A stretch of 60,243 nt of DNA, the filler included, from Jimgerdemannia flammicorona (taxonomy: Eukaryota), in NCBI GenBank assembly GCA_003990765.1. It is 2 parts of 2 records of this genome, joined end to end, with 100 filler letters (N's around TTAATTAATTAA, not from the genome) between each part and the next. Parts side by side here need not be neighbours in the genome. Positions count along the whole stretch, not along the records: positions 1 to 30,073 come from RBNJ01000456.1; 1 more part is not named here. One strand, 5' to 3'. Positions within the stretch are counted from its first letter, which is position 1. The number at the start of each line of letters is the position of its first letter. Shown here piece after piece: positions 3,001 to 28,608 of the stretch. A program made the translations under genes and the position numbers. The notes beneath the pieces are model-generated. The model was not told the DNA's origin, did no database searches, and saw only the letters and a list, made by a program, of their open reading frames with translations.

Positions 3001-3359
3001 TGTGGATCCATTCTACCCTCTCCCCTCTCTCAGCTGGGCAGTAACAGGACCCAACCATCAGCAAGCCCCATCCAGGCCTCTTCCACACTCCCCACACCAC
3101 CCAAGACCCCCAATGTCCAATGTTCCCAATGTCCCCCATCTCTTTCCGAATGAGAATACACACTTTCCCCCTCTAAACTGCTGCTGCCCCCCCATTCCTT
3201 AGTCTAATCCTGTAAGTCCACATCTGCCTCATAATGAACATCCTGCAGTAAGAAGGGGTCCACATCCAGACCCTTAAGCCAACCAAATAAATACTTCCTC
3301 CTAGCTGACCCCCATAGCCCATTAACGTTCAATGAAAAAATCCTAGTTATACTGTTCAT
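1..3359 (-). pseudogene. LINE A ORF2 (APE endonuclease + reverse transcriptase), disrupted
   Basis: Motifs MNSITRIFSLNVNGL, GGDFN, SRIDWVL, DQEKAYDRV, GVPQGDPLSP, AFADD, SGAKLNWHK, SLAGRVIVLN. Many stops and frameshifts. Confidence 0.92.
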
Positions 3360-3390
3360 ATTGAAGAAATGTTGTAATAGAGACCCTAAC

Positions 3391-5368: not shown

Positions 5369-6734
5369 CATCCCATCCACATCTACCTCTTGGATACCTA
5401 GAAATCATGAATCCACTCAGCTGAGCACTTTTAAGAAACTCACTGAAGGAGAAAGGAATGAACTTCAAAGAAGTAGAGCATACTTCTATTGCTGACAGAC
5501 AGGACATACATATGTATGGCCAGTGCCTACCCTAACTGAAAACCCAAATAGCAATATGAGCAACTGTTACTACTCTGCACCACCTCAATAATCTGACCAC
5601 CAGAATGCTGAACTTTGTCAAATTAAGGCAAACTGCCAAGGTCCCAACCAAAGAAAGTCAAAAAGCAGCTGGATATGATCTGTATGCAGCTGAAGAAGCC
5701 ACAGTTTCCAACTGAGAAGTTAAGTAAGTCTATATAGGAATCAGTATCCAAATCTCTGAAGGACATGTTGGAAGAATATACTGTCACAGTAGCCTAGCAT
5801 TGAAAGAACTCTCAGTAGAAGGAAGAGTCATTGACAAAGATTATGTATACAGGTGAAATTATTGCCCTCATCCAAAACCATAGTTGGACACCCTTCAAGA
5901 TTCCTATTGGTTTCTGTATTATACAGATCCTATTCAAAAAAATTGAATTAACCCTGACAGTCAAGGAAGTCTCTGAACTACTATCCACTATCTGAGGATC
6001 CAAAGGATTTGGCTTATCAAATAAAGCCCCAGCCCAAACTACTGTGAATAAAGAAGAGCAATTCTACAAGAAAATCAAAGACAGATATGTACCTAGTGGC
6101 TAATGCCCCCATAATATTGAGATGTACTCTTCTCAAATGATTGATGATTGCTTCTCTTATATCAATGAACTGGCTCAAAGAAGAACTAACAGAAGGAAAG
6201 CTTCTATAACCAAAATCACTACTATTGGATTAGACAAACTACTTACACTTCAAGCTTTTATCAACTGAGCACCTATCAAGATTATGATAGACAGTAGTGC
6301 CTTAGGCAACTTCATCAATAAAGAAATAGCCAACAGACTCAAGGTCTTCACCTCTCTGGTACAACAAACTCAAGCTGTTGCCACAGCTGATGGAATCTCC
6401 TATATCATTAGTAAGGAAGTCTGCAATCTACCCTTCCAAATTGGTGACTATCGAGTACATATTATTCTCCAGATTGTATCACTTCCTGACAATGAAATCA
6501 TCCTTAGAACCCCATGGTTGAAATAAGAGAACCCTATAATTGATTGGGTAAACTATTCTCTAACCATCAAGAAAGGATACCATAACTTCAAACTGCAAGG
6601 CAAAAGAGACCCACTCAGCTCTAGTGACTCTGGACCAAAGATTACTCATATCAACAAGCTACAGCTCAAGAAATTGGCCAAGAAATGCCCTCTCTTCACC
6701 ATCTCCATCTGCCCATCCAAAGGAGAACCTGAGA
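5369..6734 (+). mobile_element. Ty3/Gypsy fragment: end of gag (zinc-knuckle remnant), dUTPase, aspartic protease
   Basis: FYC*QTGH near 5485, dUTPase motifs at 5600-6025, protease IDSSALGNFI and ILRTPWLK at 6284-6526. Confidence 0.8.
5600..6025 (+). pseudogene. Retrotransposon-borne dUTPase, decayed
   Basis: FVKLRQTAKVPTKESQKAAGYDLY, SSLA, VIDKD..YTGEI, GSKGFG (motifs I, II, III and V of the trimeric dUTPase family). Confidence 0.85.
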
Positions 6735-6855
6735 TGAAGAGGAGGAAAAAGGTCCAGCAGGAGCCAAGGGAGCGAACCCAGAGCCAGTGTCAAAATGAAT
6801 GAAAGACATGTGGAAAGGTGTATATAAGGGGGACGAACAAAGAACGTAACCAACA
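6735..6855 (-). repeat. Outer part of the PLE 3' pLTR (left TIR), separated from 18624-19018 by LINE B
   Basis: Matches 22174-22290 directly and ~22880-22998 in inverted orientation. Confidence 0.9.
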
Positions 6856-9800
6856 CATCTTTCTCCGGTACCATTTGGGTTATACAACCTTTGGAAGGTA
6901 CTCACAACATCATTTTTGGAGCAAAGAGACTAACAACATAGCAACTGATAGGTGAGCTGAGGTGTATACTGGGCAGGGTGGCCCAAGCACTTTTGAATGG
7001 CAGTAAGTTGGGAGGGGCCCAGGCCTGGGGAGGAGCATGAGGGGGCTGCTGGCAGGTGGACAAGGAAGGGGTGGAGGTACTGGTGGAGGTCAGGGGTCTG
7101 GGAGGGCGAGCTTTGCAGAGACAGTGAAGGGGAGGCAGCAGGTATCAGGGCTGGAGGGCTGGCTGAGGAGGGGCAAGGAGAACGAGAAGACAGCAGTGTA
7201 GGGGGGAGTGGCCCTTAGAAGGGGGGATAGTGAAGCTGAGGGAGTAGCAGCTAGGGGGAGTGTGACTACTGATGGCAAAGGGACTGCTAATCTGGAAAAA
7301 AATCCAGATGTAATGACTGTTGGTGAGGCTGAGCGGTTGGGGCTTGGAAGACAAGGAGATTTGGCAGATGGTGTGACAGGCCTGGCAGTGGCCCCATTAC
7401 TCAAGAAATCGATCTCAGCATTTACGGTTACACTGTGCTTCTGGGGCTTAGCGGTGACAGCGAAAATGGTACTGGGACTTATTGCTAAGCAGATGGCAGG
7501 AGCTGCTTTGGTGAAGTTTCTGAAGGGACTGGAGGGTGTGGAGGTGGGTTTTGAGGAGGCTGAACCACTGGAGGAGGCACTGAAGGTTGGGTTGGTGGTT
7601 GGAGAGATGTGTGTTCCAATGGCGAGGTGTTTGAAATGGGATCTGAGAGTGATATAACTTCTGGTGAAAGGAGTACCCATGGTGACAGCAATGAAGATGA
7701 GAAAGAGAGTAGAGGATGTCATGGCAGAGTATGGAGAGGTGGTGGATATTGGATTCAGGGTCTGGGAAGGGACCATGCTCAGGACTGGAGACATGGATAT
7801 GAGGATTTGACTGGCTGGGAAAGAGGCTACTGGGAAGGCAAGGGACTGGCCTTCGGTGATGGTTTGGGGAGCAATCTTGTGTAAGGTGACAAGGGTGAAA
7901 GGAAGTGAAGAAGAGGAAGAAGATTTATTGGAAGCACTAGAAGAACTGGATGGGGCTGTGGAGTGGTGAGCAAAGGCCTAGAAGACTTTCGAGAAGGTGA
8001 TGCACCTGGAGGTGGTGAATGGAAAGAGGGTTCGAGTAGACAAGGTGCAGTGGAAAAGGGCTCAGGGTTGGAAGAGACAGAAGGAGTTGCTGGCTAAACT
8101 GGGGGGTGGACCACAGAAGAATGCAAGCAAGATGACGAGTATGGAAGGGGCCAAAGCGAGCATCTGAGCTGGTGAGAGGAGTGGGAATGATGGGGTGGAG
8201 ACAGGGAAGACAAAAGAGGTGAAGACTAGCAACCCATATACTGATGGCACCTTGGAGGTTTGGGATGAGGTCTAGGAGAACTCCCCCACTCCTTCCCCTC
8301 TTATCAGACATGGCCCGGCTACCAGAAATAAGACTGGGGAGGATGTGATGATGCTGGGACCCAGCAGGTGAAATTTAGCATTCTGGAGGTAATGGATGGG
8401 GATCAAGTAGTGGTGGCTGGGGAGGAGGAACTGGTGGATGTCCCAGAGGTGTGGGATGAGGATGCGAGTGCCAGAGCTGACACCATGATGCTGGATAGAG
8501 GGAGACCAGTGACCCCTGGTGGAAAGGAGGTGGGGAACCTACTTTGGATGTGCAGGATGATGAATAACCTGGCAGTGGAAGAGTTGGGGGAGGTGGACCT
8601 GCATGTGATGGGTGACAAACACTGGATGAGAATTTTGCAGGAGGAAGGAGTGATGATGGCAATGAAGGCAGAAATTCTCACAGTGTATCTGGAGGAGGAA
8701 GGGTATGAGGTGGACAAGAAGCAGGAGGCAGAGATGGCAGTTATCGCTAGAGAGAGGGCTGAGTACTGCTGGAACAAGCATCATAGGCTGCAGCTTTGGC
8801 AGGAGGCATGCATCAAGTACAGAGAGGAGTTTGAGGAGAAGGCTGATGAGGAGATGAATGAGCTGTTGGCTGGATTGGAGGCTCAGAGGGCTGAAGAGAA
8901 GGAGGTGATGGCAGAACATAATCTGGACACAGCACAGGAGGAGATGAGCATAGAGCAGTAGAGATCAACTGAGAACAAATAGTATTTCATTATGAACAGT
9001 ACAACCAACATTTTTTCTTTGAACGTGAATAGGCTAAGGGATACAGTTAGACATCAGAACATTTTCATTTGGCTGAAGGGATTGGAGGCCGATCTCTTCC
9101 TCTTGTAGGACATCAGGTGTGAGGATGATTCTGATAGGATGGAATGGACAAAGGAATGGGGTGGTATGGTGATTTGGAACAGCAAGGTTGGGATTCTGGT
9201 TCAGAAAGGCAGAGGGGAAATAAGGGATGTGAGGAGCTGGGGGGAGAGACTGGTCTGGGGTGAGTGGATTCATGTGGGTTGGGAGCCAGTCATAGTTGGC
9301 TCCTGTTACTGCCCTGCTGTGTGGGGGGAGCATGTGGATTGGGTGAAGAGGCTCCAGGAGAGTGAGATCCTTGCTGAGGCTGGGGTGGATATGCTTGGAG
9401 GAGATTTCAATATGGTTCGAGATATACAGTTGGATAGAACTGATAGAGGATGGAGTGCTGAGAGTAGAAGTGGGGGGCTGGCGATGTGAGAGGAAGTCAA
9501 AAGGCTAGGAGTGCTGGTTGATGCTAGTAGGGAGTTCTGGGGGGACAGGAGGGTATATACGCATTGGGCTAGAGGCCTGGAGACAAGGATTGATTGGATT
9601 CTGATGGCCAACTGTTAGGGCCACAATGTTTGGAAGGTACTAGAGGTGGAATGGTGTCCATGATCAGATCACTGGGGCCTTTTGGGACAGGGATATTTTG
9701 GGGGAAGTGGTGATAGGCCTGGACATTGGTGCCTAAATTCCTCCTTGTTGGATGATGAGTCTCGGTGAGAGGAGTGGGTGAAAGACATTCAGCTGAAGGT

Positions 9801-11267
9801 GGAGAACTAGAGACAAGAAGGGGTCTCAATTGAGGTGTAATGGGTGAGGATGAAAGAGATGGCCAGGATGTACTAGAGTGAGGCTGGCAGAGAGGCAGGG
9901 AAGTAGCATAGGCAGAGAGTACATTGGGCTTCTACTAGATTGGCTAGGCTCCTGAAGGAGTGGGTGAGACTAGCAATAGTGGAGGGAGAAGAGGAGTGGA
10001 GAACAATGAGGGTGAAGATAGAGGTTGGGGAACTACAACAGATGCTGCAGGAAGAGGAAGAGTCAAGGATGCAAGGCCTGATGGCTCGGCTTCATTGGCA
10101 GGGGCTGGAGGAAGGGGAGAGGCCTTCCAAGTTTCTCATGAGGACACTTTGAGTGAGAAGGGTATAACAGCAGTGGGAAGGGGTACTTGATTCAGGTGGT
10201 ATACTAGTGTATGGTGTATAGGAGATCCTTGGAACACTGAAGGAGTGATGGAGTGGACTGTAGAGTGAGGAGGAGGGTGGGGCAGATGCTACAGCCATTG
10301 ACTGAACATTAGAGAATTGGCACCCACTACAAGCTAAGGGACTAGGAGACCTGGTGATGCCTGTAAGGGAGGATGAGATCTACCAGGTTCTTGCTACAAC
10401 AGCCTTGGGTATGGCACCTGGAGAGGATGGCTACCCTGGGACTTCTGGAAGCAAATGGTTGGAGTCCTGGGCATGTTGGGGGAGCTGATGGCACTGTGTG
10501 ACTTTATATTACAGTCGGGGAGATGGGTGGGGGAGCAGGATCTTGGGCTGGTGATGCTGCTTTATAAGAACAAAGGAAGGCAAGAGGATTGGAAGAACTG
10601 GCAGCTGATAATGTTGCTAGATATGGACAGAAAGTTGGTGACTAAGGTGGTGATCACAAGACTACAGAAGGTGGCCCAGCAAATTGTGGGTGTTGAGCAG
10701 AGGGGCTTTATAGGGGGTCGGCTTATTAGAGATGGCACAGCCTGGGTACATGGAGTTATTGAAGGTACTAGAGCCTGTGGACTAGATGGGCATCTTGTCT
10801 TCTTGGACCAGGAGAAGGCTTATGACCGGGTGCAGTAAGTCTGGCTGGTGAAAGTATTAGATAGAATTGGAGTTTCAGTCCCATTTCGGTCAGTGATGGT
10901 CAGCCTACTGGAAGGGAGTAGGGCTGTACTCACATGTAATGGGCATAGAGGGGTAGTATTCCCTCTGGGTAGGGGGGTGCCCCAGGGGGACCCGCTGTCC
11001 CCCATTTTGTATGCTCTTTCCTTAGAACTCCTAATGGACCGAATTTGGCAGAGGATAGTGGGGCTCTCTATCTATAGAGTCGGCTGGAAAGTTGGAGCCT
11101 TTGCAGATGACATAGTGGTTGGTTTGGGAGAGATTGCTGATGTCGAGGAGCTCAAGAAGGCAGTGGAGTAGTATGAGAAGAACTCCATCTTTCTCTGATA
11201 ACATTCAGGTTACACAATCTTTTGGCAATACTTTCGACATAGTTTCTGGAGAAAAGCTACTAGTATC

Positions 11268-13298
11268 ATGGCGATCAACAAGCATCCAGAGGTGCATACT
11301 GGGCAGAGTGGCCCTGGAGCATTTGAATGGCAACAAGTGGGGAGAGGCCCCGGCTTGGGGGGGAGTATGAGGGGCCTGCTGGTGGGAGGCCGCAGTGGTG
11401 GAGGGGGCAGAGCTGAAGGCCAAGGGTCTGGCAGGGTGAGCTTTGCAGAGAAGGTGAAGGGGGGTCAGCAGGGAGCTAGACTGGAGAGCTGGCTGAGAGG
11501 GGGGAAGGTACCGGCAAAGGCTACCAGGCAGCAACCTCTTAGGGGTATCTCTCTGGAGGGCCATAGGGGTGGAGCTGGGGGAGTAGTGGCTGGGGTAGGG
11601 ACTGCTGATGGGGGTGTGATGGGTGATCTGGAAAAAAATCTAGATGGGACTGCTGATGGTGAGCCAAGTGGTAGAAAGGGCACGAGGCCCAGGGACCTGG
11701 CAGATGGTATAATGGGACTGGTGATGGCTCCATTACTCAAGAAGTTGATCTTGGCATTCGCAGTCACACTGTGCTTCCAGGGCTTAGTGGTGATGGCGAA
11801 AATGGTGTTGGGGCTTATTACTAAGCAGGTGGCAGGAGCAGCTTCAGTGAAGTTTCTGAAGAGACTGGAGGAGGTGGAGGTGGGTTTTGAGGAGGTTGAA
11901 CTGCTGGAAGAGGCACTGAAGGTTGGGTTGGTAGTTGGGGAGGTGTGTGTTCTGATGGCGAGGTGTTTGAAATGGGATCTGAGGGTGGTCCAACTGCTGG
12001 TGAAAGGAGTACCCACGGTGATAGTGATGGAGATGAGGAAGAGAGTGGAGGATGTCATGGCGGAGTATGGAGAGGTGGTGGATATCGGATTCAGGGTCTG
12101 GGAAGGGACTACACTCAGGACTGGGGACATGGATGTGAGGATTTGGCTGGCTGGAAAAGAGGCTACTGGAAAGATGAGGGACTGGCCTTCGGTAATGGTT
12201 TGGGGAGTGTTTCTGTGCAAGGTGACGCAGGTGAAAGGAAGCGAAGAAGAGGAGAAAGATTTATTAGAAGTGCTGGAGGAGCTGGATGGAGCTGTAGAAT
12301 GGTGAGCTAAGGCCTGGAAGACTTTCAAGGAGTTGATGCACTTGGAGGTGGTGGATGGAAAGAAGATTTGAGTGGACAAGATGCAGTGAGAAAGGGCTCA
12401 GGGGCGAAAGAGGCAGAAGGACCTGCTGGCTAAACTGGGGGGTGGACCACAGAAGGATGAAAGCATGAAGATGGGTGCAGAAGGGGCCAGAGCGAGTGTC
12501 GGGGCTAGTGTGAGGAGTGGGAACAATGGGGCAAAGACAGGGAAGGCAAAAGAGGTGAAGATTTGCAACCCATATGCTGATGGCACCTTGGAGGTGTGGG
12601 ATGAAGTCTGGGAGAACTCCCCCACTCCCTCCCCTCTTATCAGGCATGGCCTGGCTTCCAGGAATAAGTCTGGGGAGGACATGATGATGCTGGGGACCCA
12701 GCAGGTGAAATTTAGCATTCTGGAGGTGATGAATGGAGACCAAGTAGTGGCGGCTGGAGAGGAGGAACTGGTGGATGTCCTGGAGGTATGGGATGAGGAC
12801 ATGAGTGCTGGAGCTGACACTATGATGCTGGACAGAGAGAGGCTGGTGACCCCTGGCGGGAAGGAGGTGGGAAACCTACTTTGGGTGTGCCAGATGATGA
12901 ATAACCTGGTGGCAGAAGAGCTGGGGGAGGTGGACTTGCATGGGATGGGTGATGAGCACTGGATGAGAATTTTGCAGGAGGAAGGAGTGGTGATGGCGCT
13001 GAAGGTGGAAATTCTTATAGTGTATCTAGAGGAGGAAGGGTATGAGGTGGACAAGGAGAGGGAGGCAGAGTTGGTGGTTATCACTGGGGAGAAGGCTGAG
13101 TACTGTTGGAACAGGTATCATGGGTTGCAGCTTTGGCAAGAGGCTTACATTGAGTACAGAGAGGAGTTTGAGGAGAAGGCTGATGAGGAGATGAATGAGC
13201 TGTTGGCTGGACTGGAGGCTCAGAGGGCTGAAGAGGAGGAGGTGATGGCTGAACATAATCTGGACATGGCACAGGAGGAGAGGGGCATGGAGCAGTAG
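11268..13298 (+). pseudogene. LINE C ORF1
   Basis: ORFs 11268-12305 and 12465-13298 are in the same frame, separated by TGA stops. Homologous to LINE A ORF1. Confidence 0.85.
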
Positions 13299-13327
13299 GA
13301 ATTAATTGAGAACAAACCATATTCATT

Positions 13328-16300
13328 ATGAACAGTACAACCAATATTTTTTCTTTGAACATAAATGGGCTAAGGGGCACAGTTAGATGCAGGAATATTT
13401 TTATTTGGTTGAAGGGATTGGAGGCCAATCTCTTCCTCTTGCAGGATGTCAGGTACGAGGATGATTCCGATAGGATGGAATGGACTAAGGAATGGGGTGG
13501 CATGGCAATTTGGAACAGCAAGGTTGGGATTCTGGTTCAGAAAGGCAGAGGGGAGATAAGTGATGTGAGGAGCTGGGGAGAGAGACTGGTCTGGGGAGAG
13601 TGGATTCATGCAGGTTGGGAGCCAGTCACAGTTGGCTCCTGTTACTGCCCTGCTATGTGGGGGGAGTATGTGGATTGGGTGAAAGGGCTCCTGGAGAGTG
13701 GGATCCTTGCTGAAGCTGGGTTGGATATGCTTGGAGGAGATTTCAATATGGTTTGGGATGTATGGCTGGATAGAACTGATGGAGGATGGGGTGCTGAGAG
13801 CAGGAGTGGGGGGCTGGCAATGTGGAAGGAGGTCAAAAGGCTAGGAGCACTGGTGGATGTTGGTAGGGAGTACTGGGGGGACAGGAGGGTGTATATGCAT
13901 TGGGCTGGAGGTCTGGGGACAAGGATAGACTGGATTCTGATGGCTGACTGTTGGGGCTGTGGTGTTTAGAAGGTGCTAGAGATAGAATGGTGTCCGTGGT
14001 CAGATCACTGGGGCCTTTTGGAATAGAGGTGTTTTGGGGGAAGTGGTGATGGGCCTGGACATTGGCACCTAAATTCCTCCTTGTTGGATGATGAGTCCCA
14101 GTGAGAGGAGTGGGCAAAAGACATTCAGCTAAAGGTGGCAAATTGGTGGCAGGAAGGGGCCACAATTGGGGTTCAGTAGATGAGGATGAAAGAGATGGCC
14201 AGGATGTACTGGAGCGAGGCTGGCAGAGTGGCTGGGAAGCAGTGAAGGCAGAGAGTACATTAGGCTTCTACTAGATTGACTAGGCTCCTAGAGGAGTGGG
14301 CAAGACTGGCTGTAGTGGAGGGAGAAGAGAATTGGAGAATAACAAGGGTAAAGATGGAGGTTGGAGAACTACAACAGGTGCTGCAGGAAGAGGAAGAGTT
14401 AAGAATATAAGGCCTAGTGGCATGGCTTCATTGGCAGGGGCTGGAGGAAGGGGAGAGGCCTTCCAAGTTTCTCTCAAGGACACTTCGAGTGAGAAGGGTA
14501 CAGCAGCGGTGGGAAGGAGTACTTGACTTGGATGATATACTAGTGCATGGTATATAGGATATCCTTAGAATGCTGAAGGTGTGATGGAGTGGATTGTGGA
14601 GTGAGGAGGAGGGTGGGACAGATGCTACAGCCATTGACCAAACATTAGAAGATTGGCACCCACCACAAGCTGAGAGGTTAGGGGACCTGGTAATGCCTGT
14701 AAAGGAGGACGAGATCTGCTAGATTCTTGCCATGACAGCCTTGGGTATGGTGCCTGGGGAGGATGGCCTACTCTGGGACTTCTGGAAGCAAATGGTTGGA
14801 GTCCCAGGCATGTTGGGAGAGTTGACAGCACTGTGTGACTTTATATTGATGGGTGGGGGAGCAGGATCTTAGGCTGGTGACGCTGCTTTATAAGAACAAA
14901 GGAAGGTGAGAGGATTGGAAGAACTGGCAGCCGATTATGTTACTAGATATGGACAGAAAGTTGGTGACTAAGGTGGTGGTCGCAAGGCTACAGAAGGTAG
15001 CCTGGCAAATTGTGAGTGATGAGCAGAGGGGCTTCATAGGAGGTCGGCTTATTAGAGATAGCACAGCCTGGGTACATGGAGTTATTGAAGGTACTCGAGC
15101 CTGTGGACTAGATGGGCATCTTGTCTTCTTGGACCAGGAGAAGGCTTATGACTGGGTGTGGCAAGTCTGGCTGGTAAAAGTATTAGATAGAATTGGGGTT
15201 CCAGTCCCATTTTGGTTGGTAATGGTCAGCCTACTGGAAAGGAGTAGGGCTGCACTCATGTGTAATAGGCATAGAGGGGTAGCATTCCCTCTGGATAGGG
15301 GAGTGCCCCAGAGGGACCCACTGTCCCCCATTTTGTATGCACTTTCCTTGGAACCTCTAATGGACAGGATTTGACAGAGGATAGTAGGGCTCTCTATCTA
15401 TAGAGTTGGCTGGAAAGTTGGAGCCTTTGAAGATGACATGGTGGTTGGTTTGGAAGTGACTACAGATGTCGAGGAGCTCAAGAAGACAGTGGAGTGGTAT
15501 GAGGAGAACTCTGGGGCGAAGCTGAATTGGCACAAGTACGAAACAATGGTGCTGGGCAATGGCCTGGTGGGTGGAGAAGTTATTGGAACAATTGTCTCCA
15601 CCAGAGAGGCAGTGTGGTACTTGGGCATCTATTTGTTGGTCTATGGATCTGTTCTGCCCAGGCTGTGGTGGGAGCAGAGGATTGGAATTTGGGAGAAGGA
15701 CCTGCAGAGTTGGGGGGGAAGATACTTCTCTCTGGCAGGAAGGATCTCAATTTTGAATATATACTGGCTGCCAAAGCTGTGGTATTTGGCTTATCATCTG
15801 GACTTCCCAGCCTGGGTGGTGAAGAGATTGGTGAAAGTAGCCAAGGGATGGATTTGGGCTGACAGACAGAGTCAGATTGGTTGGGAGACTTTGTCCCTAC
15901 CAGTGGCAAGAGGTGGTCTTGGGCTGGTGGACTTCCCCAAGAGACTACACTGCTTGAGGGCATGGTGGCTTAGGAGGGCAGTGGAGTTGTGTGGAGGGGG
16001 CTGGGTTCCCCTGCTGCAGATGGTATAGAAGAGGCAGTCATCACCAAGAGGCTTGACTGGTGATCTTCTTTCATTAGTTGGGCTTCAGAACACTGCACAA
16101 CTGAGATATAAAGGCTTCTGGTGGGGGATAGCTGAGGGGGTACACTGCATTGGTATTCACTGGCAAGGGGATGAGGGGGAGAGGGCTTGGGGTCCAGCAA
16201 TGTGGAGATGGAATGGTATTCTTCTGGGAGGTATGCCTTTACTTGAGTTCAATATTGGTGATGGAATCAAATACCAAAGGGGACCGGGCCAGGATCTGTG

Positions 16301-16974
16301 GCCTAGTGGTTGACAAGGAGTTAGAATTGGTAAGGAGTGGGACTAGCATGGGGTTTGGACCTGGAGTGCTGCAGTGAAAAATTAGATGCCACTGAAGTAC
16401 TGGGTGGTCTGGTGGCATGTGCTGAGGAGGAATGTAATGCTTAACTTCTGCTCAGGACACCTTGTCATAGGGGGCTACTTTGACTGTGAGGAGTGCCATA
16501 ATGTAGGGCAGGAAGGGAGATTTGTACAGATGCCAGAACATTGGCTAGGGGAGTGTGAGGTGTTGGGAGACTTTTGGTAGGCCATTGGAGACCGCTTGGG
16601 GGTAAGGCGTAGGGGAGATGATGTACAGGGGAGGTGGGAGGACCTGAGGGATCGATTGATAGGAGGGGTAGGGGAGGAGTAGATTACTCTAGGCTGGGCA
16701 TTGGCAATTTGGGTTGGGCTGGCTGGTCACTGGCTATTTGTATTTGAGGAGGAGAGGCGATAGAGCTTGGAGAGCTGGTTATCACGGTGGCAGTACCTTA
16801 TGGAGGATATCTTGACAGGCTGGTGGCTTGGTTGGGGTGGTAGAGGGAGTTGGAGGTGCCACTTAGTGGTGAAAATCTGTGGTCAGAGTAGTGGGAGAGT
16901 TGGAGTTATTAGTGAGAGGGTGGTCTTTGTATGTAAAGAAATGGGGAGGGGCCCCCTGATGGGGATTGGATAGT
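13328..16974 (+). pseudogene. LINE C ORF2: APE endonuclease, RT and C-terminal Cys/His finger
   Basis: FSLNINGL, LQDVR, GGDFN, TRIDWIL, SDH, DQEKAYD, GVPQRDPLSP, AFEDD, CEEC...EHWLGEC. Confidence 0.92.
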
Positions 16975-17032
16975 AGGTGGTGATATTGTATACTTATTCA
17001 TAGACTAATAATAAAGACAGAGTCCAAGGGAC

Positions 17033-17067
<35 letters not shown>

Positions 17068-18623
17068 GAGGAGAACTCTGGAGTGAAGCTGAATTGGTAC
17101 AAATGTGAAACAATGGTGCTAGGCAATGGTCTGGTGGGAGGAGAGGTTATTGGAATGATTGTCCCTACCAGAGAGATGGTACAGTACTTGAGCATCTATT
17201 TGTCAGTCTATAGATCTGTTCTATCTAGGCTGTGGTGGGAGCAGAGGGTTGGAATCTGAGAGGAGGACCTGCGGGGTTGGGGGGAAGACACTTCTCTCTG
17301 GCAGGAAGGATCTCGATTTTGAATGTATACTGACTGCCAAAGCTGTGGTATTTGACTTATCATCTGGACTTCCCAGCCTGAGTAGTGAAGAGATTGGTGA
17401 AGGTGGCCAAGGGATGGATTTGGGCTGGTAGACAGGGTCAGATTGGTTGGGAGACCTTGTCCCTACTGGTGGCGAGAGGTGGTCTTGGACTGGTAGACTT
17501 CCCCAAACGACTACACTGCTTGAGGGCATGGTGGCTTAAGAGGGCAGTGGAGTTACAAGGAGGGGGTTGGGTTCCCCTGCTGCAGAAGGTCTAGGAGAGG
17601 CGGTCATCACCAAGAGGCTTGACTGGTGATCTTCTTTCATTAGTTGGGCTTCGGAACACTGCACAATTGTGATATAAAGGCTCCTGGTGGGGGATAGCAG
17701 AGGGGGCACACCATATTGGTATTCACTGGCAAGGGGATGAGGGGGAGAGGGCTTGGGACCCAGTGATGTGGAGATGGGATGGCATTCTACTGGGCAGCGT
17801 ACCTTTACCTGAGTTCAACATTAGTGATGGAGTAGAATGTTAGAGGTGACCAGGCCAGGATCTGTGGCCTAGTGGTTGGCAAGGAGTTGGAATTGGAGAG
17901 AAGTGGAACTGGTATGGAGTTTGGATCTGGAGTACTACAGTGAAAAAATGGATGCCGCTGAAGTACTGAGTGGTCTGGTGGCGTATGCTGAGGAGGAATG
18001 TGATGCTTAACTTCTGCTCAGGATACCTTATCATAGAGGGCTGCTTTGACTATGAGGAGTGCTTTAATGTAGGACAGAAGGGGAGTTTTATACAGATGCC
18101 AGAACATTGGCTTGGAGAGTGTGAGGTGTTGGGAGGCTTTTGGTGGGCCATTGGGGACTGCTTGGGGGTGAGGCGTAGGGGAGATGATGTAAGGGGGAGG
18201 TGGGAGGACCTGAGGGATCGATTGGTAGGAGGGGTAGGGGTGGAGTAGATTACCCTAGGCTGGGCATTGGCTATTTGGATTGGGCTGGCCAGTCACTGGC
18301 TATTTGTATTTGAGGAGGAGAGGCGACAGAGCTTGGGGAGCCAGTTATCACAATGGCAGTACCTTATGGAGGACACCTTGACAGGCTGGTGGCTTGGTTG
18401 GGGGCTGCAGGGGGGTCAGAGGTACTGCTTGGTGGTGAAAATCTGTGATCAGAGTGGTGGGAGGGTTGGAGTCATTGGTGAGAGGGTGGTCTTTATACAG
18501 AAAGAGGTGGGGAGGGGCCCCTCTATGGGAATTGGATAGTGGATAGTGATATTGTATACTTATTTATAGACTGGTAATAAAGGTGAAGTCCAAGTGACTA
18601 TAAAAAGGAAAAAAAAAAAAAAA

Positions 18624-19018
18624 GTAACAAAAAATGCATCAGCCATTTATTGCCATGTAAAAACATAGTCCTTATATACAAAATATGACATCCCAAATGG
18701 GAGGATGTGCTACAACTTGGGGCAAACCGAATTAGGAACCACATGATCACCAGAGATAGGCAGAGATAAAGGGGGAGCCAATCTCAGTTGTAGGATAAAA
18801 ATCACAAACAAACACAAACAAAACAAATCCAAATCGAGATTAAAAAACATCTGCAGACCCTGGAGGGGTAAGCATGAGCAAGGGGTGAGGCTGAAACAGA
18901 GCGAGCCACAGTGAGCCCAAGTGAAGTGAGGGGCCAAAGGCAGCAGAGGAGAGTGGAGTAAGGCCGAGACCCCAGAGTGAGCACGAGACCCCGGAGGGGG
19001 CAAGGATGTTTTTTAATC
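18624..19018 (-). repeat. Inner part of the PLE 3' pLTR, including a 14-bp inverted repeat and a 153-bp loop
   Basis: Direct repeat of ~22282-22676. GATTAAAAAACATC (18838-18851) pairs with GATGTTTTTTAATC (19005-19018). Confidence 0.92.
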
Positions 19019-19019
19019 C

Positions 19020-21030
19020 TCTCCAGCAACCAGAAGTACCAGAAGGTGACGAAAATGCAAAATGAGAGTGATGGATTAAAGAAGAAATAGAAGGAAGATG
19101 TGAACAAGCAATCAGAGGGCGTCGAGAAAGAGATGAAAGTCCATGGTATAAAAGAGAAGAGTGCAGGACAGTATCAGGGTGTTAAGCAATCCAGTGAGTA
19201 CGATCAAATAGTATGACAAGAATTGGGGGTGGGAAAAAAGAGAGGGTATGGAGAGAGTAAGGGGGGAGGGAGGGAAGGAAGGGGGGGTAAAGAGGAGAGA
19301 GTAGGGAAGAGTGAACAACAGACCATTCAATAGAAGCAAGCAGATTGCGAATAATAAAAATAGAGTAGGCATGACAATGGACCACAAAGTTGCCAAGAAC
19401 CTGAATAGCAGACACCCAATCAGAATGACAGGAGCAGCATAGTGCAAGATGATGAGCCTCACTACGAATGCATTCAAGAAGAGTGTGATAAGGATGATTG
19501 AACAAGAAGTCAGGGAACTGTTGGGAACAGGGAAAATGGGAATAAACAACAGTTCGGAAAGGAGAAAGAGAAATGGAAAGGTCCAAAAAGGGGATACTAG
19601 TCATACTGCACACCCAGGTAATAGAATTGTGGGGAGGGTAGATGCCCAGGAACACACTAGGGATATCAATACCAGCAACAGTGAAGACAATAAAGTCATC
19701 AATATATCAGCGAAAGAAGATATCCCCAGCCCAGAACACAATGGAAAGAGGTGAAGTAATATCATATAACGTACACAATTCATGGGCCAGACCAATAAGG
19801 TTGGCAAAGGTGGGGGTACAATTCATTTCCATGGCAATATCAGAAGTCTGGTGAAAGGAGCCAAGGGCCAACTCAAAATAATTAGAGCTGTAGATGAGGA
19901 GCGTAAGCTCAACAATGGAAGCCAGTGAAACTGGGGAATCCAAAGGAAAAACAATAGAACCCAGGAAGCAAAGGCAATCATTGATCTCATCAAAACAAAT
20001 AGCAGTATAAAAGAAAGAGAAGTCACCAGAGGCCAAATGGGAAAAATGGTGGACAGGCACAATGGTGGAGCAGAGAAGGGTGAGCTCCTGAGTATTATGA
20101 AGAATGGTATACTCAGGCCCAAGATGGTGTTGTAAGAGAGCCATCCAGGAGAGAAAGAAGTGAGATAACCACTTCGAAATCTCAGTGGTAGGAGAACTGT
20201 AAGCAGCCATAATGGGATGCCAAGCCAAAATAGGCTTGTGAACTTTAGGAAGAGTATAAAAAACCAGAAGAGAAACATCCGGGGAGGACAAAGAGTCCTG
20301 AAAGAAGTTAAAAATGGGGTTCACGAATGGAGAGTCCAAAAGCAACCTAGCACAAGCCAGAGAAACCTGAAGAAGAGTGAGAATCTCATCCAATCCAAGA
20401 GCACTAGGCTCATAAGCCATGGCTCGAAGGAGGGCAGAAAGGCCATCAAGATAGAGTGACTTAGGAATAAGTGCAAAACCCTGATTCTTATCAGTGACTG
20501 TGAGCAAATGCATAGGCAATTGCTTGACTGATTTAAGCGTGTTATGCACAGCACAGTCTGAAACCAAGCAAGAGCGAGCACGTCTGGGAACAGACAGTGT
20601 GTAGGCCATGTCGAGGAATACATAGTATGAAGAGACATTGGGAGGGGGGACCCAATTGCTAGGAACAAAATAATGAGAGGGTATCTCACCACAATCTTGA
20701 AAGAAAATGGCAAGGTCAAGAGCATGATGAAAATGTGTGAGATGAGCTGGATCAGTGAAAGAGAATTGTGAGGGAGTCATAGGAAAAATGAAACAAGGAC
20801 CCAAGGATAAGGCAAAGACTTGAAGGGGAGAAAGAGGGTAGTCAGCCAGAGAAAAAAAGGAGGAGATAAAAGAGTTTCAAGAGAAGAGTAAACCCGAAAG
20901 TTCAGGACAAGCAACTGGGAAAGGCGAAGGGGGGACAATATGAGGAACCACTCAGGGCACACCAGAAGCGACGACGGAATCCGAGAAGGGATGGAGACAC
21001 CAGGGGAGAACTATGCCAGGGGGAAGTTTA
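19020..21030 (-). pseudogene. Penelope-type reverse transcriptase without a GIY-YIG domain
   Basis: One frame with a few stops: LSPLQVFALSLGPCF, TDKNQGFALI, FYTLPKVHK..WHPI, SGDFSFFYTAI, FHQTSDIAMEMNCTPTFANL, FR*YIDD (YIDD at 19695-19706), IPFLDLSI, thumb HPYH..IRSE, and terminal PLIACSHLPSISSLI. Confidence 0.9.
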
Positions 21031-22245
21031 AGAGCAGGAGGCCTTCCCCTTCCCTCTGACTTTTTTTGAAGGTGGTGAGCCCGACAAATGGGAGCACACC
21101 CCATCAGAGTACCAGACCTTGTGGCTACAGGCTTTCGTGCAGCCCTTACATTCAGGGGTATGGGTGGAGGAGGTGGAGGAGGAACTGGCAGAGGAGGCCA
21201 AAGGCGAGTGAGCAGCCGAAGGGGCAGCAGTATGAGGAACACCACCATGAGGACAGACAGACTTAGCCAGGTGCCAGTAGGCATGGTGGAGGCAACCGGA
21301 GCAGACAGCATAAGGCCAGGCCCTGACAGGGCAAGAACCAAGTTGGTGGCCATGTTTGGGGGCAGGGGGAACAGAGGAGGAAGCCTTGGTGGGAGAGGGA
21401 GACTGGGAAGAGGCCGATGAAGCTTGATTGGGCTTGGCAGGAGTCTTGGCAGGGGTCTTGGAGGGGGCCTTGGTAGCAGCAGTGGTGAAGAAATGAACCT
21501 CAGCACAAGCAGTAGTATGAGCTTTAACACAAATGGCCTTGGAGACTGAAACCTCAGGGGAGGCAGGCAGGGGGGTAGTGGTGGTAGCACGAGCAGCAGC
21601 AGTAGCATGTGACATCTCCTGCTTGTGAAGGCAAGCAACAAAAGAGGTGCTAGTGAGGAGAAAACAATGCACAGCATTGATGTTGGTGGTGACAGAAGAA
21701 ACATCTTGGATGGTGAAGCTACAGAAGGGGGCAGCATCTGAAAGGTGAGAGGAGGTGAAGGTCACAAAGGCAGCACAGGCATGGTGGAAGGAGACAGAAG
21801 TAGTGGTGGCAGAAGTGGCAGTAGCATCAGTGGTGGCAAGCTTGGCAGTAGCAGTGGTGGCACAAACCTCTTCAGAGAGGGCTTGGCAGTGGGCCTCAGA
21901 GAGAATGGAGTAGCAGATGGTGGGTGGAGCAATGACATCAATGTCATGGCAGAGATGAGCCTCCTTGGCAGAGAGGGTAAGAACCAACCAGAACTGGGAG
22001 AGGAGCAAATGACCAGAGGGACGAAGGTCCAAGGGAAGGGAAAGGATGGCAGATGAGATGTAGGTCTTGAATGAGACAGTGGTGGGGGTGAAGGTGGGGG
22101 GAGGAGGAGGAGGAAGAGCCTCATCCATGAGCTTGTCAATAAAGATGGAGGCCCTGAGAGCAGGCAGTACAGCAGAGGAGGAAGAAGGCCCAGCAGGAGC
22201 CAAGGGAGTGAACCCAGAGCCAGTGTCAAAATGAATGGAAGACAT
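21028..22245 (-). CDS. PLE ORF1: Ala/Thr-rich helical region, Pro/Lys linker, two Cys/His clusters, basic tail
   Basis: Uninterrupted ~405-codon frame from the ATG at 22245 (MSSIHFDTG), which lies inside the pLTR. Contains CSGCLHHAYWHLAKSVCPH and CKGCTKACSHKVWYSDGVCSH. Confidence 0.7.
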   Translation of the reverse strand: MSSIHFDTGSGFTPLAPAGPSSSSAVLPALRASIFIDKLMDEALPPPPPPTFTPTTVSFKTYISSAILSLPLDLRPSGHLLLSQFWLVLTLSAKEAHLCHDIDVIAPPTICYSILSEAHCQALSEEVCATTATAKLATTDATATSATTTSVSFHHACAAFVTFTSSHLSDAAPFCSFTIQDVSSVTTNINAVHCFLLTSTSFVACLHKQEMSHATAAARATTTTPLPASPEVSVSKAICVKAHTTACAEVHFFTTAATKAPSKTPAKTPAKPNQASSASSQSPSPTKASSSVPPAPKHGHQLGSCPVRAWPYAVCSGCLHHAYWHLAKSVCPHGGVPHTAAPSAAHSPLASSASSSSTSSTHTPECKGCTKACSHKVWYSDGVCSHLSGSPPSKKVRGKGKASCS

Positions 22246-22998
22246 GTAAAAAGGTATATATAAGGGAGACAAATAAAGAATATAACCAAAAATGCATCAG
22301 CCATTTATTGCCACATAAAAACATGGTCCTTATATACAAAATATGACATCCCAAATGGGAGGACGTGCCACAACTCGGGGCAAACCGAATTAGGAACCAC
22401 ATGACTGCCAGAGATAGGCAGAGATAAAGGGGGAGCCAATCCCAGTTGCAGGATAAAAATCACAAACAAATACAAACAAAACAAATCCAAATTGAGATTA
22501 AAAAATATCTGCAGACCCCGGAGGGGTGAGTATGAGCAAGGGGTGAGGCTGAAACAGAGCGAGCCGCAGTGAGCCCAAGCGAAGTGAGGGGCTGAAGGTA
22601 GCAGAGGGAAGTGGAGTAAGGCCAAGACCCCAGAGTGAGTATGAGACCCTGAAGGGGGCAAGGATGTTTTTTAATCTCAATTTGGATTTGTTTTGTTTGT
22701 ATTTGTTTGTGATTTTTATCCTGCAACTGGGATTGGCTCCTCCTTTATCTCCACCTATCTCCAGTAATCATGTGATTCCTAATTCGGTTCACTCTGAGTT
22801 ATGGTACATCCTCCCATTTGAGATGTCATATTTTGTATATAAGGACTGTGTTTTTACATGGCAATAAATGGCTGATGCATTTTCAGTTACATTCTTTGTT
22901 CATCCCCCTTATATATGCCTTTCCACATGTCTTCCATTCGTTTTAACACTGGCTCTGGGTTCACTTCCTTGGCTCCTGTGGACCTTCTTCCTCCTTCA
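22174..22998. repeat. Large hairpin: PLE 5' pLTR plus inverted copy (arms 22174-22509 and 22663-22998, loop 22510-22662)
   Basis: The arms are reverse complements with scattered transitions. Confidence 0.93.
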
Positions 22999-23500
22999 CT
23001 TGTTCAAAGTTGACAGCTATGTCAGACCACTACTCCAGAAAGTCCAAGATACATTTCTGAACCAAACCACAGAACCACCTATATCTGTCATTATCAATGA
23101 TCAAGAAAAATACAAAGTGGAACAAATCCTCAACAAATATAGCCACAAGAACTATCTAAATAGTACAACAATACTAGATCAAATTAGAAGGTCTCAATGA
23201 GGATATCAAAAGCTAAGAAGGGGAGAGTTGTAAGTGTATAACCTCCAAGCCACCAAAATTACATGTCATTCTCAGAACTAATTTGAAAATCACATGTGAG
23301 ACTACAAAACAAGTTACTGAAGAGATCATCTGGTTATACAAAATATGCCAGCAAATATGAGAACCTACCACCAAGACACAAGAATACTAGAAGAAGTACT
23401 ACAACCATAAGACCAACTCTAAACCTCTATAACTAGTTTAGTATACTATACTATTACAAAAGGAAACTAAAAGTACCAAACTCAAACTGAGACAAGAAGG
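22999..23500 (+). mobile_element. Chromovirus 3' end: integrase tail and chromodomain remnant, PPT, start of LTR at 23229
   Basis: VSY-like ...VRP...PISVIINDQEKYKVEQIL. PPT AGAAGGGGAGAG followed by TGTAAG. The right boundary is uncertain. Confidence 0.65.
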
Positions 23501-24003
23501 ACCCTATCTCATCTATCAAGAGTTCATGAACTATACTATCAAACTCAAGACTAAGATACACTGCAACTATACAAGACCATTACTTAGCAGAAGCAAAATG
23601 CATTTGAATAACTCTATTTACTCTATATATCTGTATTACCTCTATTGGAGAATGATAGATACTTCATCTGAACTCAAGAAAGCTAACATCATCAAAACCA
23701 ATCTCAAGCCATCCACATGATAGATATTACTACTAGAAATTGTCTTGGATTATAGAAAATATCATTTCTGAGAGGTTCAAACTCCCAGCTGTGATATTGA
23801 GAGTCCTTGCCCTAGACAAGGATGGCCAGTTCTTACAAATATACTAGTAGGCCAAAAAAAAAAGAGAGCCAAGACCTGTTATCCTTGTACAACTACTGCC
23901 ACCAAGGATAGCCTTAATCTTGCAAGAGATAGAAGTGACAATACCTTGAAACTGATGATATATATCAGAAGTCAGAAAACTGCTCAGACTTTGTCAGAGA
24001 TGA

Positions 24004-24471
24004 TGTCATTAATAGTAATATTATCAAAGACTAACCAGACAGCATCTAGATCTATAAATAGCTTAGCAGTCATAGCATAGTTAGATTAGCCTTGTATGAT
24101 GTGACTGTAAACTAACTCAGCAGTCAGATGATCCCTTGATATGTCAGATCATACTTATACTATGTGACTATATTCCAACTCAGCAAGGCACTAAGTACTA
24201 TATCCATATTCAGTATAGCTCAGATAGCCCCTCACTAGTATAAATACCCGCTCCCCCAGATCTCAGAATCTCAGACTCAAACACACAAGAATACTCTTGA
24301 ACACTTCTCACAATATCCCTTTACATAACTACTCCTAGTATAGTAATATCATGAATAGCAAATAAACCTATTTAATAACCTATAAACTACTCTTAAGTAA
24401 ATCTACTCTCTGTTAGGTCCCACTCCTAACCCATTACGAAATTTCCTAATTGGGTATTGTCTGCAGTGATA
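24004..24471 (+). repeat. Probable LTR of another retrotransposon that truncates the hAT element
   Basis: Starts TGTCA after a purine-rich stretch. TATAAATA near 24238, AATAAA near 24361, ends GTGATA. No second copy in the window. Confidence 0.45.
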
Positions 24472-26462
24472 CACCAATTCAACTAAGCTGGTCTTAGTTT
24501 CTTGAACTTCCTGAAATACAGAAAATCCTAAATATCCAGAACTAGTCCAAAAAAGGACTTTAGTTGAGACATCAATTCAATCTTGAAATCAATAAGCATA
24601 GAGGATATACTCTATATGAAATTGATCTTGACCTTAAGAAAACAGTCTTTCAGAATATCCAGAACTTCCAGAAAACCCTTCCAGAACTACATAACAATTA
24701 CCCTAATAATAACTCTCTTACAGCTGAATATGTATACATTTCTTAGAATTAATGTATATTAGATCTGTCAGAATTAATAACTCAATTCTATATTGATTGA
24801 TTTTATTAAGCTATCAGGATCTCACTTAGGTGAAAATCTTGCTGATATCTTCTTAAAGTATATTAAAGACTTTGGTATATAGACAAACATATATATTTTT
24901 CAAAAAGAGTATTTTCATACTTTCAGATTATTGTTTGATATTTAAAAATTATCATATATTTCAAATTATTTACTCTAGATATTAGCTATAATAATAGACA
25001 ATATAACCAATAATAATGTTTTATTTCAAATAATTCATGAGTTTGATCATATTGGCCTAAACCATCTATCAATACAATATGTATAATATATAGCTCATAT
25101 TATTAATCTGGCTGTTCAGAATTTTTTAACCTATCTGAAGACTGATCAAAATACTATTGATATAACTAAGGGAAGAGAAATTTCAAAACTTCAAATGATT
25201 ATTACAAAGATTCAATCATCTTTACTGTATCAAGAGGAATTTGTTAAGAAGACTCAAACCAAAAGAACTTATTTTAGATATCAAAACTTGATAGAATTCA
25301 ACATATTCTATGATTGAGCAGATCTTAAAATTTTCAAATATAAGTCTTTTATTCATTTTTAAATTTGATTCAATATTCAATTTAAAATTCAATTCAAATA
25401 ATCTAATAAATTTATTTTCTATAATATATAGCCTTTAACTGCAACTGTTATTACAGATAAAGACTTAAGAAAATATGCTATTGAGAGCTATACTTGAGAA
25501 ATATTGAAAGATACTATGGAAATTTTAAAGAGCTTCAAAATGGTAACAGATCTTACTACTCAAGAAAAATATCCAACAATCTATTCTACTGTTCTGATTT
25601 ACAATTTCTTACTAGATATATTAGAAGAGCATGATGAGAAGATTTAAAAAACTACAGATGAGTAATCAAATACTATAGGAGAGTAATTAAATATTATTAA
25701 AGAGCAATCAAATACTATTCATCTAGTACTAATAGCAGCTATTGATAAGTTGAAAATATATTATTCAATAACAGATATTCTAACTTATTATATTAGTACT
25801 AGTAAGTAAAATTTTGAAACTCAAGAACTATATGAATTTTACATTTCAAATTTTTATATTTTCAATTTATTTTTCTTCAAATATACTAGTACTTGACCCC
25901 AGACTTAAACTATCATATTATATATCTCATGAATAGGAGTCTGAATGGATTGAGGCTGTCAAGAGAGCTATTTATATAACTTATGATGAAACCTACATCT
26001 CTCTCCCTTGATTAGTTTATCAAGAATAGTCTAATACATATTATAGATACTGAAATCAATGATATTAATACTGCATTATAATAATATATATTCAATAAAA
26101 GACAAAAACTGATGGCAAACCCTGAGCACAAGGTGGATATTTATTTAATAAGTGAAATTGTTGAATATCTGATAAAAATCGATATATTATCTTGGTGGTA
26201 AGTTGAGACTTTAATTTGAATTGTATTTAAATTGAATTATATTTAATTCAAATCAAAATATATTCAAAAACATTAGGGCTATATTGGAGATTTCCCAAAT
26301 CTAGTAAAAATAGCATGAGACTATTTAGCCATCTCAGCAATAAGTACTCTAATTGAGAAAATCTTTTCTAATGGTAGGAATTTTATATCACTTAAAAGAG
26401 GTGCTTTAAAACTGGAAACAATTCAGGAATATATGTGTTTAAAGGCATGGCAATTAGCCTAG
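24472..26462 (+). pseudogene. hAT transposase, decayed, with several short AT-rich introns
   Basis: LIDFIKLSGSHLGENLADIF, IAHIINLAVQ, T*NSTY, LDPRLKL, and dimerisation domain FPNLVKIA*DYLAISA..IEKIFS..LETIQEYMCLKAW. Intron-like segments at ~25802-25889 and ~26198-26277. Confidence 0.85.
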
Positions 26463-26661
26463 TACTAGTCAACCCCAAAATCTTAAAATATAATTATTTT
26501 TATATAATTAAATTGAAATACTTATCATAAAATCCCTCTGATATGGTACTTTGAAAGTAGGTGTTGGAAAGCTTAAGATATGGCAGATACTTTAAAAGCA
26601 AGTACTTTGAAAGCTTAAAATATAGCAGGCATTTTGAAAGTGAGACAGATATTGTCAGAGT

Positions 26662-27121
26662 TAGTACTCCTAACAAATCGAATTGAATTAAATTGGACCT
26701 AAATTTGATTCAATTTAAAAACTTCAAATCAAATTGAGGCCCAATTCAATTCAAATCAATTCAAATTGAGGTCCAATTCAATTCAAGGTCCAATTAAAAC
26801 TCTATTTTTAGAAATTAAATAACTTGATGAATATACATCCAAATTCAATGCTCTTTAGCTTGTTAGATTCCTATTATATAGGGAAATCTAACAGGCTAAT
26901 GATCATTGAATTTGGACATATATTCGTCGAGTTATTACATTTCTAAAAATATGTTTTGAATCAGACCCTCAATTCAATTTGAATTTGATTCAATTTGAAC
27001 TCAATTTGAATTTAATTCGATTTGAACTCAATTTTGAATTGAAAAATCCCCAATTCGATTTAATTTGAATAATCCTCAATTTGATTCAATTTAAATTGAT
27101 TCAATTCATTTGGGAGCACTA
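26662..27121. mobile_element. hAT-family MITE copy 1
   Basis: TIR TAGTACTCC…GGGAGCACTA. 8-bp TSD gtcagagt/gttagggt. Internal palindrome. Confidence 0.85.
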
Positions 27122-28014: not shown

Positions 28015-28608
28015 GGCAATATAGAAAGAAATATAGTATAATATCTCAAATTTGTCAGAAGATCAACCCCTTGACTCTGAATCTATCTCTCTAAAAAAAA
28101 GCATACAATAATACTCATTGAGCAGTAGTAGCTAGATATAAGAGAAATCATTAATAGCCTATATTATTGATAGTCTAGTCTGTATATTGTAATTAATAAA
28201 ATTTTTATAATATTATTATTCAAATAAAGCCTCCATTTGATTCAACCCTAATTAAATCAAAGCTCTATTCGATTTGACTTTAATCAAATTAAAACTCCAT
28301 TCAATTTGACCCTAATTGAATTAAGGCTCCATTTGATTTGACTTTCATTCAATTTGACTTCTATTTGACTTGAAAAAATCTCAATTCAATTTGACTTTTC
28401 AGATCTCTCATTCAATTTGACTCAATTTCATTTGATTCATTTGTAAGCACTAATTATAATCTTTGAATAATATTACAATTAAAATATTACATAATGTAGC
28501 TTATAATAATTTATAGCTTAAATTTTATAGTTTTTAAGCTAACATATCTTATTATTATTATTTAACAATTTAAAATAAAAATATCTATTATTGATAAAGT
28601 TAAAAGAT

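Follow-up and report, generated by a model that had tools for sequence, protein, structure and literature searches.

The subject is a retrotransposon in a window of 60,243 nucleotides (nt) from Jimgerdemannia flammicorona (the whole stretch analysed, two joined parts of assembly GCA_003990765.1). It is a Penelope-like retrotransposon with two open reading frames (ORFs) and no endonuclease (EN), and it belongs to the Penelope-like elements (PLEs) without being either a canonical EN+ or a telomeric EN- member. Its ends and junctions suggest, with a probability that we put at about 0.65, that it inserts by twin priming where the DNA is already damaged, with the two complementary DNAs (cDNAs) meeting at a programmed joint, an inverted repeat (IR) built into its pseudo-long terminal repeats (pLTRs). 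In vitro work from 2024 on how PLEs are copied does not settle the later steps by which their inverted pLTRs form. Both the inverted layout and the idea of self-priming are already known (PMC3846280); the present family offers hundreds of copies, a spaced IR, and scars of reverse transcriptase (RT) restarts that reveal the direction of synthesis, so that the two models give different, countable predictions.

The inverted repeat and the inversion point

Along the plus strand the element reads a-L-[RT and ORF1, on the minus strand]-a-L-a', where a is a 336-bp repeat ending in IR arm i and loop L is followed by arm i' (Table 1). The first-pass annotation of the window had proposed that L is enclosed in the 3' pLTR by a short IR, that the IR is extended in the 5' pLTR to a stem of about 335 bp, and that the inversion point is set by sequence, and all three statements hold. 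The IR at 18838-18851/19005-19018 is perfect over 14 bp, encloses a loop of 153 bp, and extends neither outward nor inward, and a comparable IR occurred in 0/2000 Markov-resampled sequences. The 5' stem (22176-22509/22663-22995) aligns over 334 bp at 89.2% identity. Across the family the IR is 15 bp long, the exact 15-mer being present in 135 of 217 left arms and a C>T change at base 15 in 69.

The fixed position of the inversion was examined in 30 loci chosen by ORF1 alone (the best 30 of 329 candidates), which represent 29 insertions. Inversion occurs at the IR in 28 of these, the remaining one being head-to-tail, and breakpoints are thus not scattered among copies. Over all loci fetched, a set partly selected by junction, 57/58 head-to-head junctions lie at the IR, with one tail-to-tail nested case set aside. 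The loop is found in both orientations, as the first-pass annotation had suggested looking for: the 29 insertions comprise 17 flip monomers, 3 flop monomers, 8 long palindromic forms, and 1 tandem. Eight full palindromes of 8.1 kb were read end to end, and tandem units and one solo hairpin were also seen. The end of L together with i' has 420 exact occurrences genome-wide, leading into an inverted arm in 165 cases and into the RT end in 238, with 17 unassigned.

An assembly artefact is unlikely, as the arms differ by about 10%, mostly through deamination-type changes, and the junction has 165 exact copies genome-wide. Copy decay in the family is mainly C>T/G>A and strongest at CG (0.30 vs 0.02-0.10). 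Contigs of X1 and X2 contain portions of the element but show no joints, and none of the pieces listed crosses the junction; they are uninformative either way. Some individual copies have been altered around the loop: deletions within it are present in L062/L156, L127, and L185, some apparently between three GGGTCT direct repeats of L, and in L185 the entire IR-L-IR cassette has been lost from a 3' pLTR. At L193 (5789-5969) the arm of one copy is joined tail-to-tail into the arm of another at a156, in a TATATA stretch, probably through nested insertion.

Ends, restart tracks and target sites

In every form the outer ends share a single terminal base, +72 of ORF1, which is the first base of a. 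Termini starting within 7 nt of this base number 115 (66 3' ends, 44 arms, and 5 outer restarts), and in another 4 cases the end is interrupted by a different insertion. Microhomology of 1-3 nt to the continuation of the template is present with the same bias on 3' ends and arms, with C/T at position -1 in 43/66 3' ends and 31/44 arms, G at -2 in 36/66 and 22/44, and A at -3 in 34/66 and 29/44, respectively. A tail of 30-40 bp, optional in EN+ PLE clades, is absent from the 115 termini, where similarity to the ORF1 continuation weakens past -3 to -5, and no telomeric repeat was found at the ends, a hexamer lying within 40 nt of just 2/115 termini.

Restart tracks, in which a partial copy in cDNA polarity is followed by a fresh start at +72, occur on both classes of end. 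They are found on the 3' ends of L194 (twice at a168), L092, and L019, and on the arms of L152 (a168), L150 (a332), L196 (RT965), L045, and C20 (RT119, ORF1-624, a119), so that the a168 stop is common to one arm and one 3' end. Roughly half of the stops fall on an IR arm or close by (a331-332, L+10 to +14, L138-152, i'+5). The tracks are unmirrored in all four inserts with both ends seen (C20, C271, L150, L152); C20 carries different tracks on its two sides, and central restarts are asymmetric in three cases (C3328, L195, L197). Nested insertion as the origin of the restarts in L150 and L152 was rejected, the other end having an unrelated flank.

The family is dispersed, and its target sites are interspersed repeats. 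Among 31 complete inserts, 12 are resolvable and 19 have no usable empty site; by comparison with paralogous empty sites, 7 of the 31 show small target deletions (gap of 4-26 by nominal boundary) and 1 a deletion of about 1 kb, while 4 are flanked by direct duplications of 214, 225, 252, and 880 bp at 95-99% identity. No short target-site duplication (TSD) was found in 16 inserts, and neither a fixed-length TSD nor a target motif was detected. Small deletions and long duplications with no short TSD point to insertion at breaks or at widely staggered nicks. L121 and L134 are two separate insertions that struck a single repeat at almost the same place, and the target there is similar to the terminal CTTCCTCC of the element.

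Proposed twin priming and the explanations weighed against it

As reconstructed from sequence comparison, twin priming would begin with both 3'-OH ends at a break or nick pair priming RT at the same internal RNA site, aided by 1-3 nt of microhomology. Each cDNA would extend inward, with a restart at +72 after RT drop-off, and RT would often stall at either arm of the IR. Once a cDNA has stopped in i', it would pair with arm i, and the strands would be joined and filled in, either by direct annealing of the two cDNA ends or, since the IR closes readily on the cDNA strand, by a brief fold-back and a subsequent switch to the second cDNA. One long and one short cDNA would give a flip monomer, the same with roles swapped a flop, two long cDNAs the 8.1-kb palindrome, and two short ones a solo hairpin. 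Priming of the second cDNA from the opposite target end is strongly implied by the shared features of the two ends and by the unmirrored restart tracks. It is a more tentative proposal, with chances a little short of even, that a single ribonucleoprotein would prime both break ends at one RNA start as the normal route, the built-in IR serving as a programmed cohesive cDNA joint. The most that a hairpin could do would be to prime the second strand at that joint.

Pure fold-back self-priming, in which a cDNA ending at i' would fold onto i and be extended along a, its free end being joined to the other side of the target, appears unlikely. The first-pass annotation had taken this course, reading the inverted arm as a fold-back copy of repeat a and the hairpin as a possible source of the priming missing in an element without endonuclease, and neither part is supported by the comparison of copies. 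The arm stops at +72, for which self-priming offers no reason as its template continues into ORF1, and the two outer ends have the look of target priming at a single RNA position. Self-priming predicts mirrored restarts, found in 0/4 inserts, does not predict the microhomology bias at the arm end, and cannot yield tracks in cDNA polarity confined to the arm side (C20, C3328, L196). A simple outward fold-back copy would have a far end unrelated to the RT start and mirrored irregularities, whereas the arm ends at the RT start base and its irregularities are unmirrored.

A number of observations nevertheless weigh against twin priming, and several of them favour self-priming. The latter accounts for the fixed junction, and DNA folding closes the IR in 39/40 copies, with a mean of -29 kcal/mol on the cDNA strand vs -24.5 kcal/mol on the sense strand; intramolecular fold-back is also kinetically easier than annealing in trans. 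The two halves of the palindromes are of one haplotype in 8/8 cases, differing at 0-1 of 38 markers versus a typical 8-16 between copies, which a hairpin copy predicts and which means that twin priming needs both cDNAs to come from one RNA or source locus. Private transversions common to all a copies of an insert (5 cases) are likewise predicted by hairpin copying, the arm of L133 has six rare variants of the adjacent a that are absent from the 3' a, and the central restarts of L195 can be read as looped out. Further, L187 contains a single inversion away from the IR, flop forms could be products of an inversion between a and a' at a later time, restart cases are scarce, and the loci sampled are the best-scoring copies and not random ones.

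The haplotype argument is qualified by C20, whose halves are of one haplotype (0/23 markers differ, with at least 2 differing from any other copy) despite their differing restarts, so that one source does not imply a hairpin copy. The choice of template for the arm is not discriminated in 20 flip monomers (a3-arm 0.911, a5-arm 0.916), as deamination noise dominates. The idea that the loop is a special DNA hairpin was rejected, and this counts against self-priming: taken by itself, the loop has no better fold than its mononucleotide shuffles (-19.5 vs -20.7), and no antidiagonal stands out. The 181-nt cassette, which includes the IR, has z-scores of -4.6 (RNA) and -3.7 (DNA).

It is rather improbable that an endonuclease acting in trans, from an EN+ PLE or the abundant L1-like elements, provides the nicks, with flop forms and some monomers arising by later recombination between repeats. 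L1-like elements with endonuclease domains are present within the window, the long duplications imply two staggered nicks, L121 and L134 are independent insertions at nearly one site, and L would be turned round by crossing over between a and a'. Against this stand the missing fixed-length TSD and target motif and the nature of the four GIY-YIG matches examined (of 34), which resemble intron endonucleases of organelles and have no PLE RT in their vicinity; moreover, the proposal names a source of lesions only and does not replace two-ended priming. These four matches are at L198-L201, and one of them adjoins a LAGLIDADG-like ORF.

Capture at breaks, by end joining, of hairpin or palindromic DNA that exists outside the chromosomes and is cut site-specifically at +72 is very improbable: it would suit the common +72 end of flip, flop, dimer, and solo forms, the lack of a TSD, and a flip/flop loop that may be like parvoviral rolling-hairpin termini, although other routes could also give such a loop, but neither ORF has a nuclease or Rep domain, symmetric cutting of dimers predicts flip and flop near 1:1 where 17:3 was observed, and the restart tracks indicate re-initiation of RT on RNA.

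If two-ended priming is indeed the normal route, a PLE that has no endonuclease and does not depend on telomeres could bridge breaks at hundreds of sites, and the inverted pLTRs of PLEs in general may have arisen in this way. The closest in layout are the EN+ PLEs of Adineta vaga (Pen2a, Pen2, Pen3a), which share the direct pLTR-ORF-pLTR arrangement with an inverted pLTR and a pLTR that includes the ORF start; their inverted pLTR overlaps the direct one by 15 bp, palindromes are present at the junctions, and self-priming was proposed in 2013 (PMC3846280). Unlike the present element, they have a GIY-YIG domain, TSDs of 8-10 bp, a 31-bp tail, and few copies (PMC3846280), whereas here the IR arms stand 153 bp apart and the loop orientation is readable. 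The A. vaga alignment file may bear on flip and flop forms. EN-deficient PLEs of fungi and protists are said in that source not to share the A. vaga organization (PMC3846280), so the element is an EN-less PLE with a layout stated to be absent from its fungal counterparts, one that spreads outside telomeres and seems to do so as a patch on DNA breaks.

The Poseidon element of Anolis (PAc) resembles it in the start of RT, which lies at a fixed point inside the ORF start (+111-118 in PAc vs +72 here) and from which, in vitro, the two target strands are both extended; PAc differs in cutting its own target, in its hammerhead, and in having two start sites that give a tail, and the main text of the 2024 paper offers no model for the inverted joint (PMC11167929). 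The telomeric EN-deficient PLEs Athena and Coprina are alike in lacking an endonuclease, having two ORFs, and priming from exposed DNA ends (PMC8557442, PMC4209133, PMC6431247), whereas the present element has no reverse-complement telomeric repeat or canonical hammerhead, is dispersed inside other repeats, and is precise at both ends. An inverted copy of the 5' pLTR is called typical of PLEs, and non-telomeric EN-less families are listed; among them PLE-X of Chara and Selaginella and MjPLE01 are likewise EN-less and non-telomeric (genome-wide in Chara), and PLE-X differs by its hammerheads, CxC motif, and targeting of ribosomal DNA in Selaginella (PMC8557442). The element would work most like L1 twin priming, with the joint programmed. 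In L1 the second target end primes a second cDNA and produces a 5' inversion, with the second primer acting at variable internal sites by the first cDNA end and inversions in a minority (PMC11702581), whereas in the present element one site would serve both primers, and the built-in IR forms the joint in nearly all copies. The target-site pattern corresponds to that of EN-independent L1 insertions, which show target deletions and no TSD (PMC1920257). PMC3649969 and 10.64898/2026.07.22.740005 were also consulted, and the literature searches made showed no proposal of twin priming through an IR for PLEs.

Layout, proteins and relatives of the element

The features of the element in the window are collected in Table 1. 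As in PLEs, the pLTRs include the ORF start and form a partial tandem with an inverted 5' copy. The pLTR is about 503 bp long (22174-22676) and not 420 bp; its 3' copy in the window is split by an L1-like array, a later insertion that separates the outer 116 bp (6738-6853) from the rest. The array (6854-18613) was inserted at a position 116 and consists of L1-like elements head-to-tail, with 4.3-kb and 1.57-kb repeats and poly(A) ends; an element related to it lies on the minus strand at about 30-5200. AATAAA and TATA-like motifs are found on the minus strand at 22304 and 22330, within repeat a and 60-90 nt upstream of the ORF1 start.

Table 1. Coordinates of the parts of the PLE in the window.
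Feature	Position	Strand	Remarks
3' pLTR, outer 116 bp (repeat a positions 1-116), true 3' terminus of the element	6738..6853	-	89.7% to 22174-22289
3' pLTR, inner part (rest of a, IR, loop L, IR)	18614..19018	-	91% direct repeat of matching part of 22257-22676
IR arm i of 3' pLTR	18838..18851	.	perfect 14-bp complement of 19005-19018
Loop L, 3' copy, GC-rich, 153 bp	18852..19004	.	one orientation in every 3' pLTR seen
IR arm i' of 3' pLTR	19005..19018	.	contains ORF2 last codon and stop 19013-19015
ORF2, PLE-type RT, without GIY-YIG	19013..21103	-	upstream limit approximate
ORF1, about 405 aa	21028..22245	-	first 72 nt belong to pLTR
5' pLTR	22174..22676	-	a 22174-22509 (arm i 22496-22509), loop L 22510-22662, arm i' 22663-22676
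Inverted arm a'	22663..22998	+	shares IR with 5' pLTR; end = 3' terminus base (+72 of ORF1, within about 3 nt)

Across 42 bodies the element encodes ORF1 (about 405 aa) and, in the -1 frame, ORF2, which reaches 696 aa and overlaps ORF1 at an A-run (21061-21067). ORF2 is broken in the window and open for 644-696 aa in other copies, and its stop codon (19013-19015) falls within the IR. ORF1 is rich in Ala, Ser, and Pro, with a Cys/His-rich C-terminus, and gave no significant Pfam or atlas match, its sole atlas match (0.80) being below recognition level and uninformative. The only Pfam domain of ORF2 is RVT_1, and the RT is of PLE type. The earlier description of an element without endonuclease is upheld, as GIY-YIG was found in neither ORF, ORF2 stopping about 99 aa past the RT core, at the IR; domain and atlas searches likewise found no nuclease or HUH Rep domain in either. 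A DIRS-type element was rejected, tyrosine recombinase and RNase H not being found in a Pfam result of RVT_1 only, and a search of solved structures with the RT gave 0 matches.

The RT has 2623 relatives, with RT+GIY-YIG proteins among the top matches; GIY-YIG is present in 4 of the 60 top relatives scanned, and in a quick tree of 69 rows, built without named reference PLEs or the second PLE family of the genome, the RT groups with EN-less proteins, apart from 8 GIY-YIG bearers. The only named source among the 10 top matches looked up is the fungus Racocetra fulgida. No canonical hammerhead was found, either as an Rfam hammerhead or as CTGANGA on either strand of the pLTR majority sequence (non-canonical variants being beyond its scope), and an Rfam scan of 17000-24500 gave three sub-threshold matches, none meaningful. 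None of 22 distant PLE-like RT loci aligned (23-28% identity) has a long inverted arm, but their contigs are short; P0001 yielded no relatives with surrounding DNA. More than half of these metagenome contigs (L204-L225) are units of about 3.1-3.7 kb with identical ends, circular or tandem, and many contain a loose CTGANGA..GAAA motif.

A second PLE family of the genome (L190-L192; G000 C787, C5076, C11196) has a pLTR of about 350 bp ending in CCCTAA repeats, and an inverted arm is absent in 3/3 loci. It also shows a long fused ORF, tandem repeats of 71-82 bp at the head of the pLTR, and 2-3 kb of shared upstream sequence.

Around the element in the window, the flanks at 6000-6737 (gag-protease-like) and 22999-23700 (chromodomain-like) presumably belong to a Gypsy-type element, and the middle of pol is missing between them, which would imply a large target deletion or later recombination. 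AT-rich imperfect palindromes of TTCAA/TTGAA words occur at three places in the window (26661-27043, 28223-28456, and 51726-52080).

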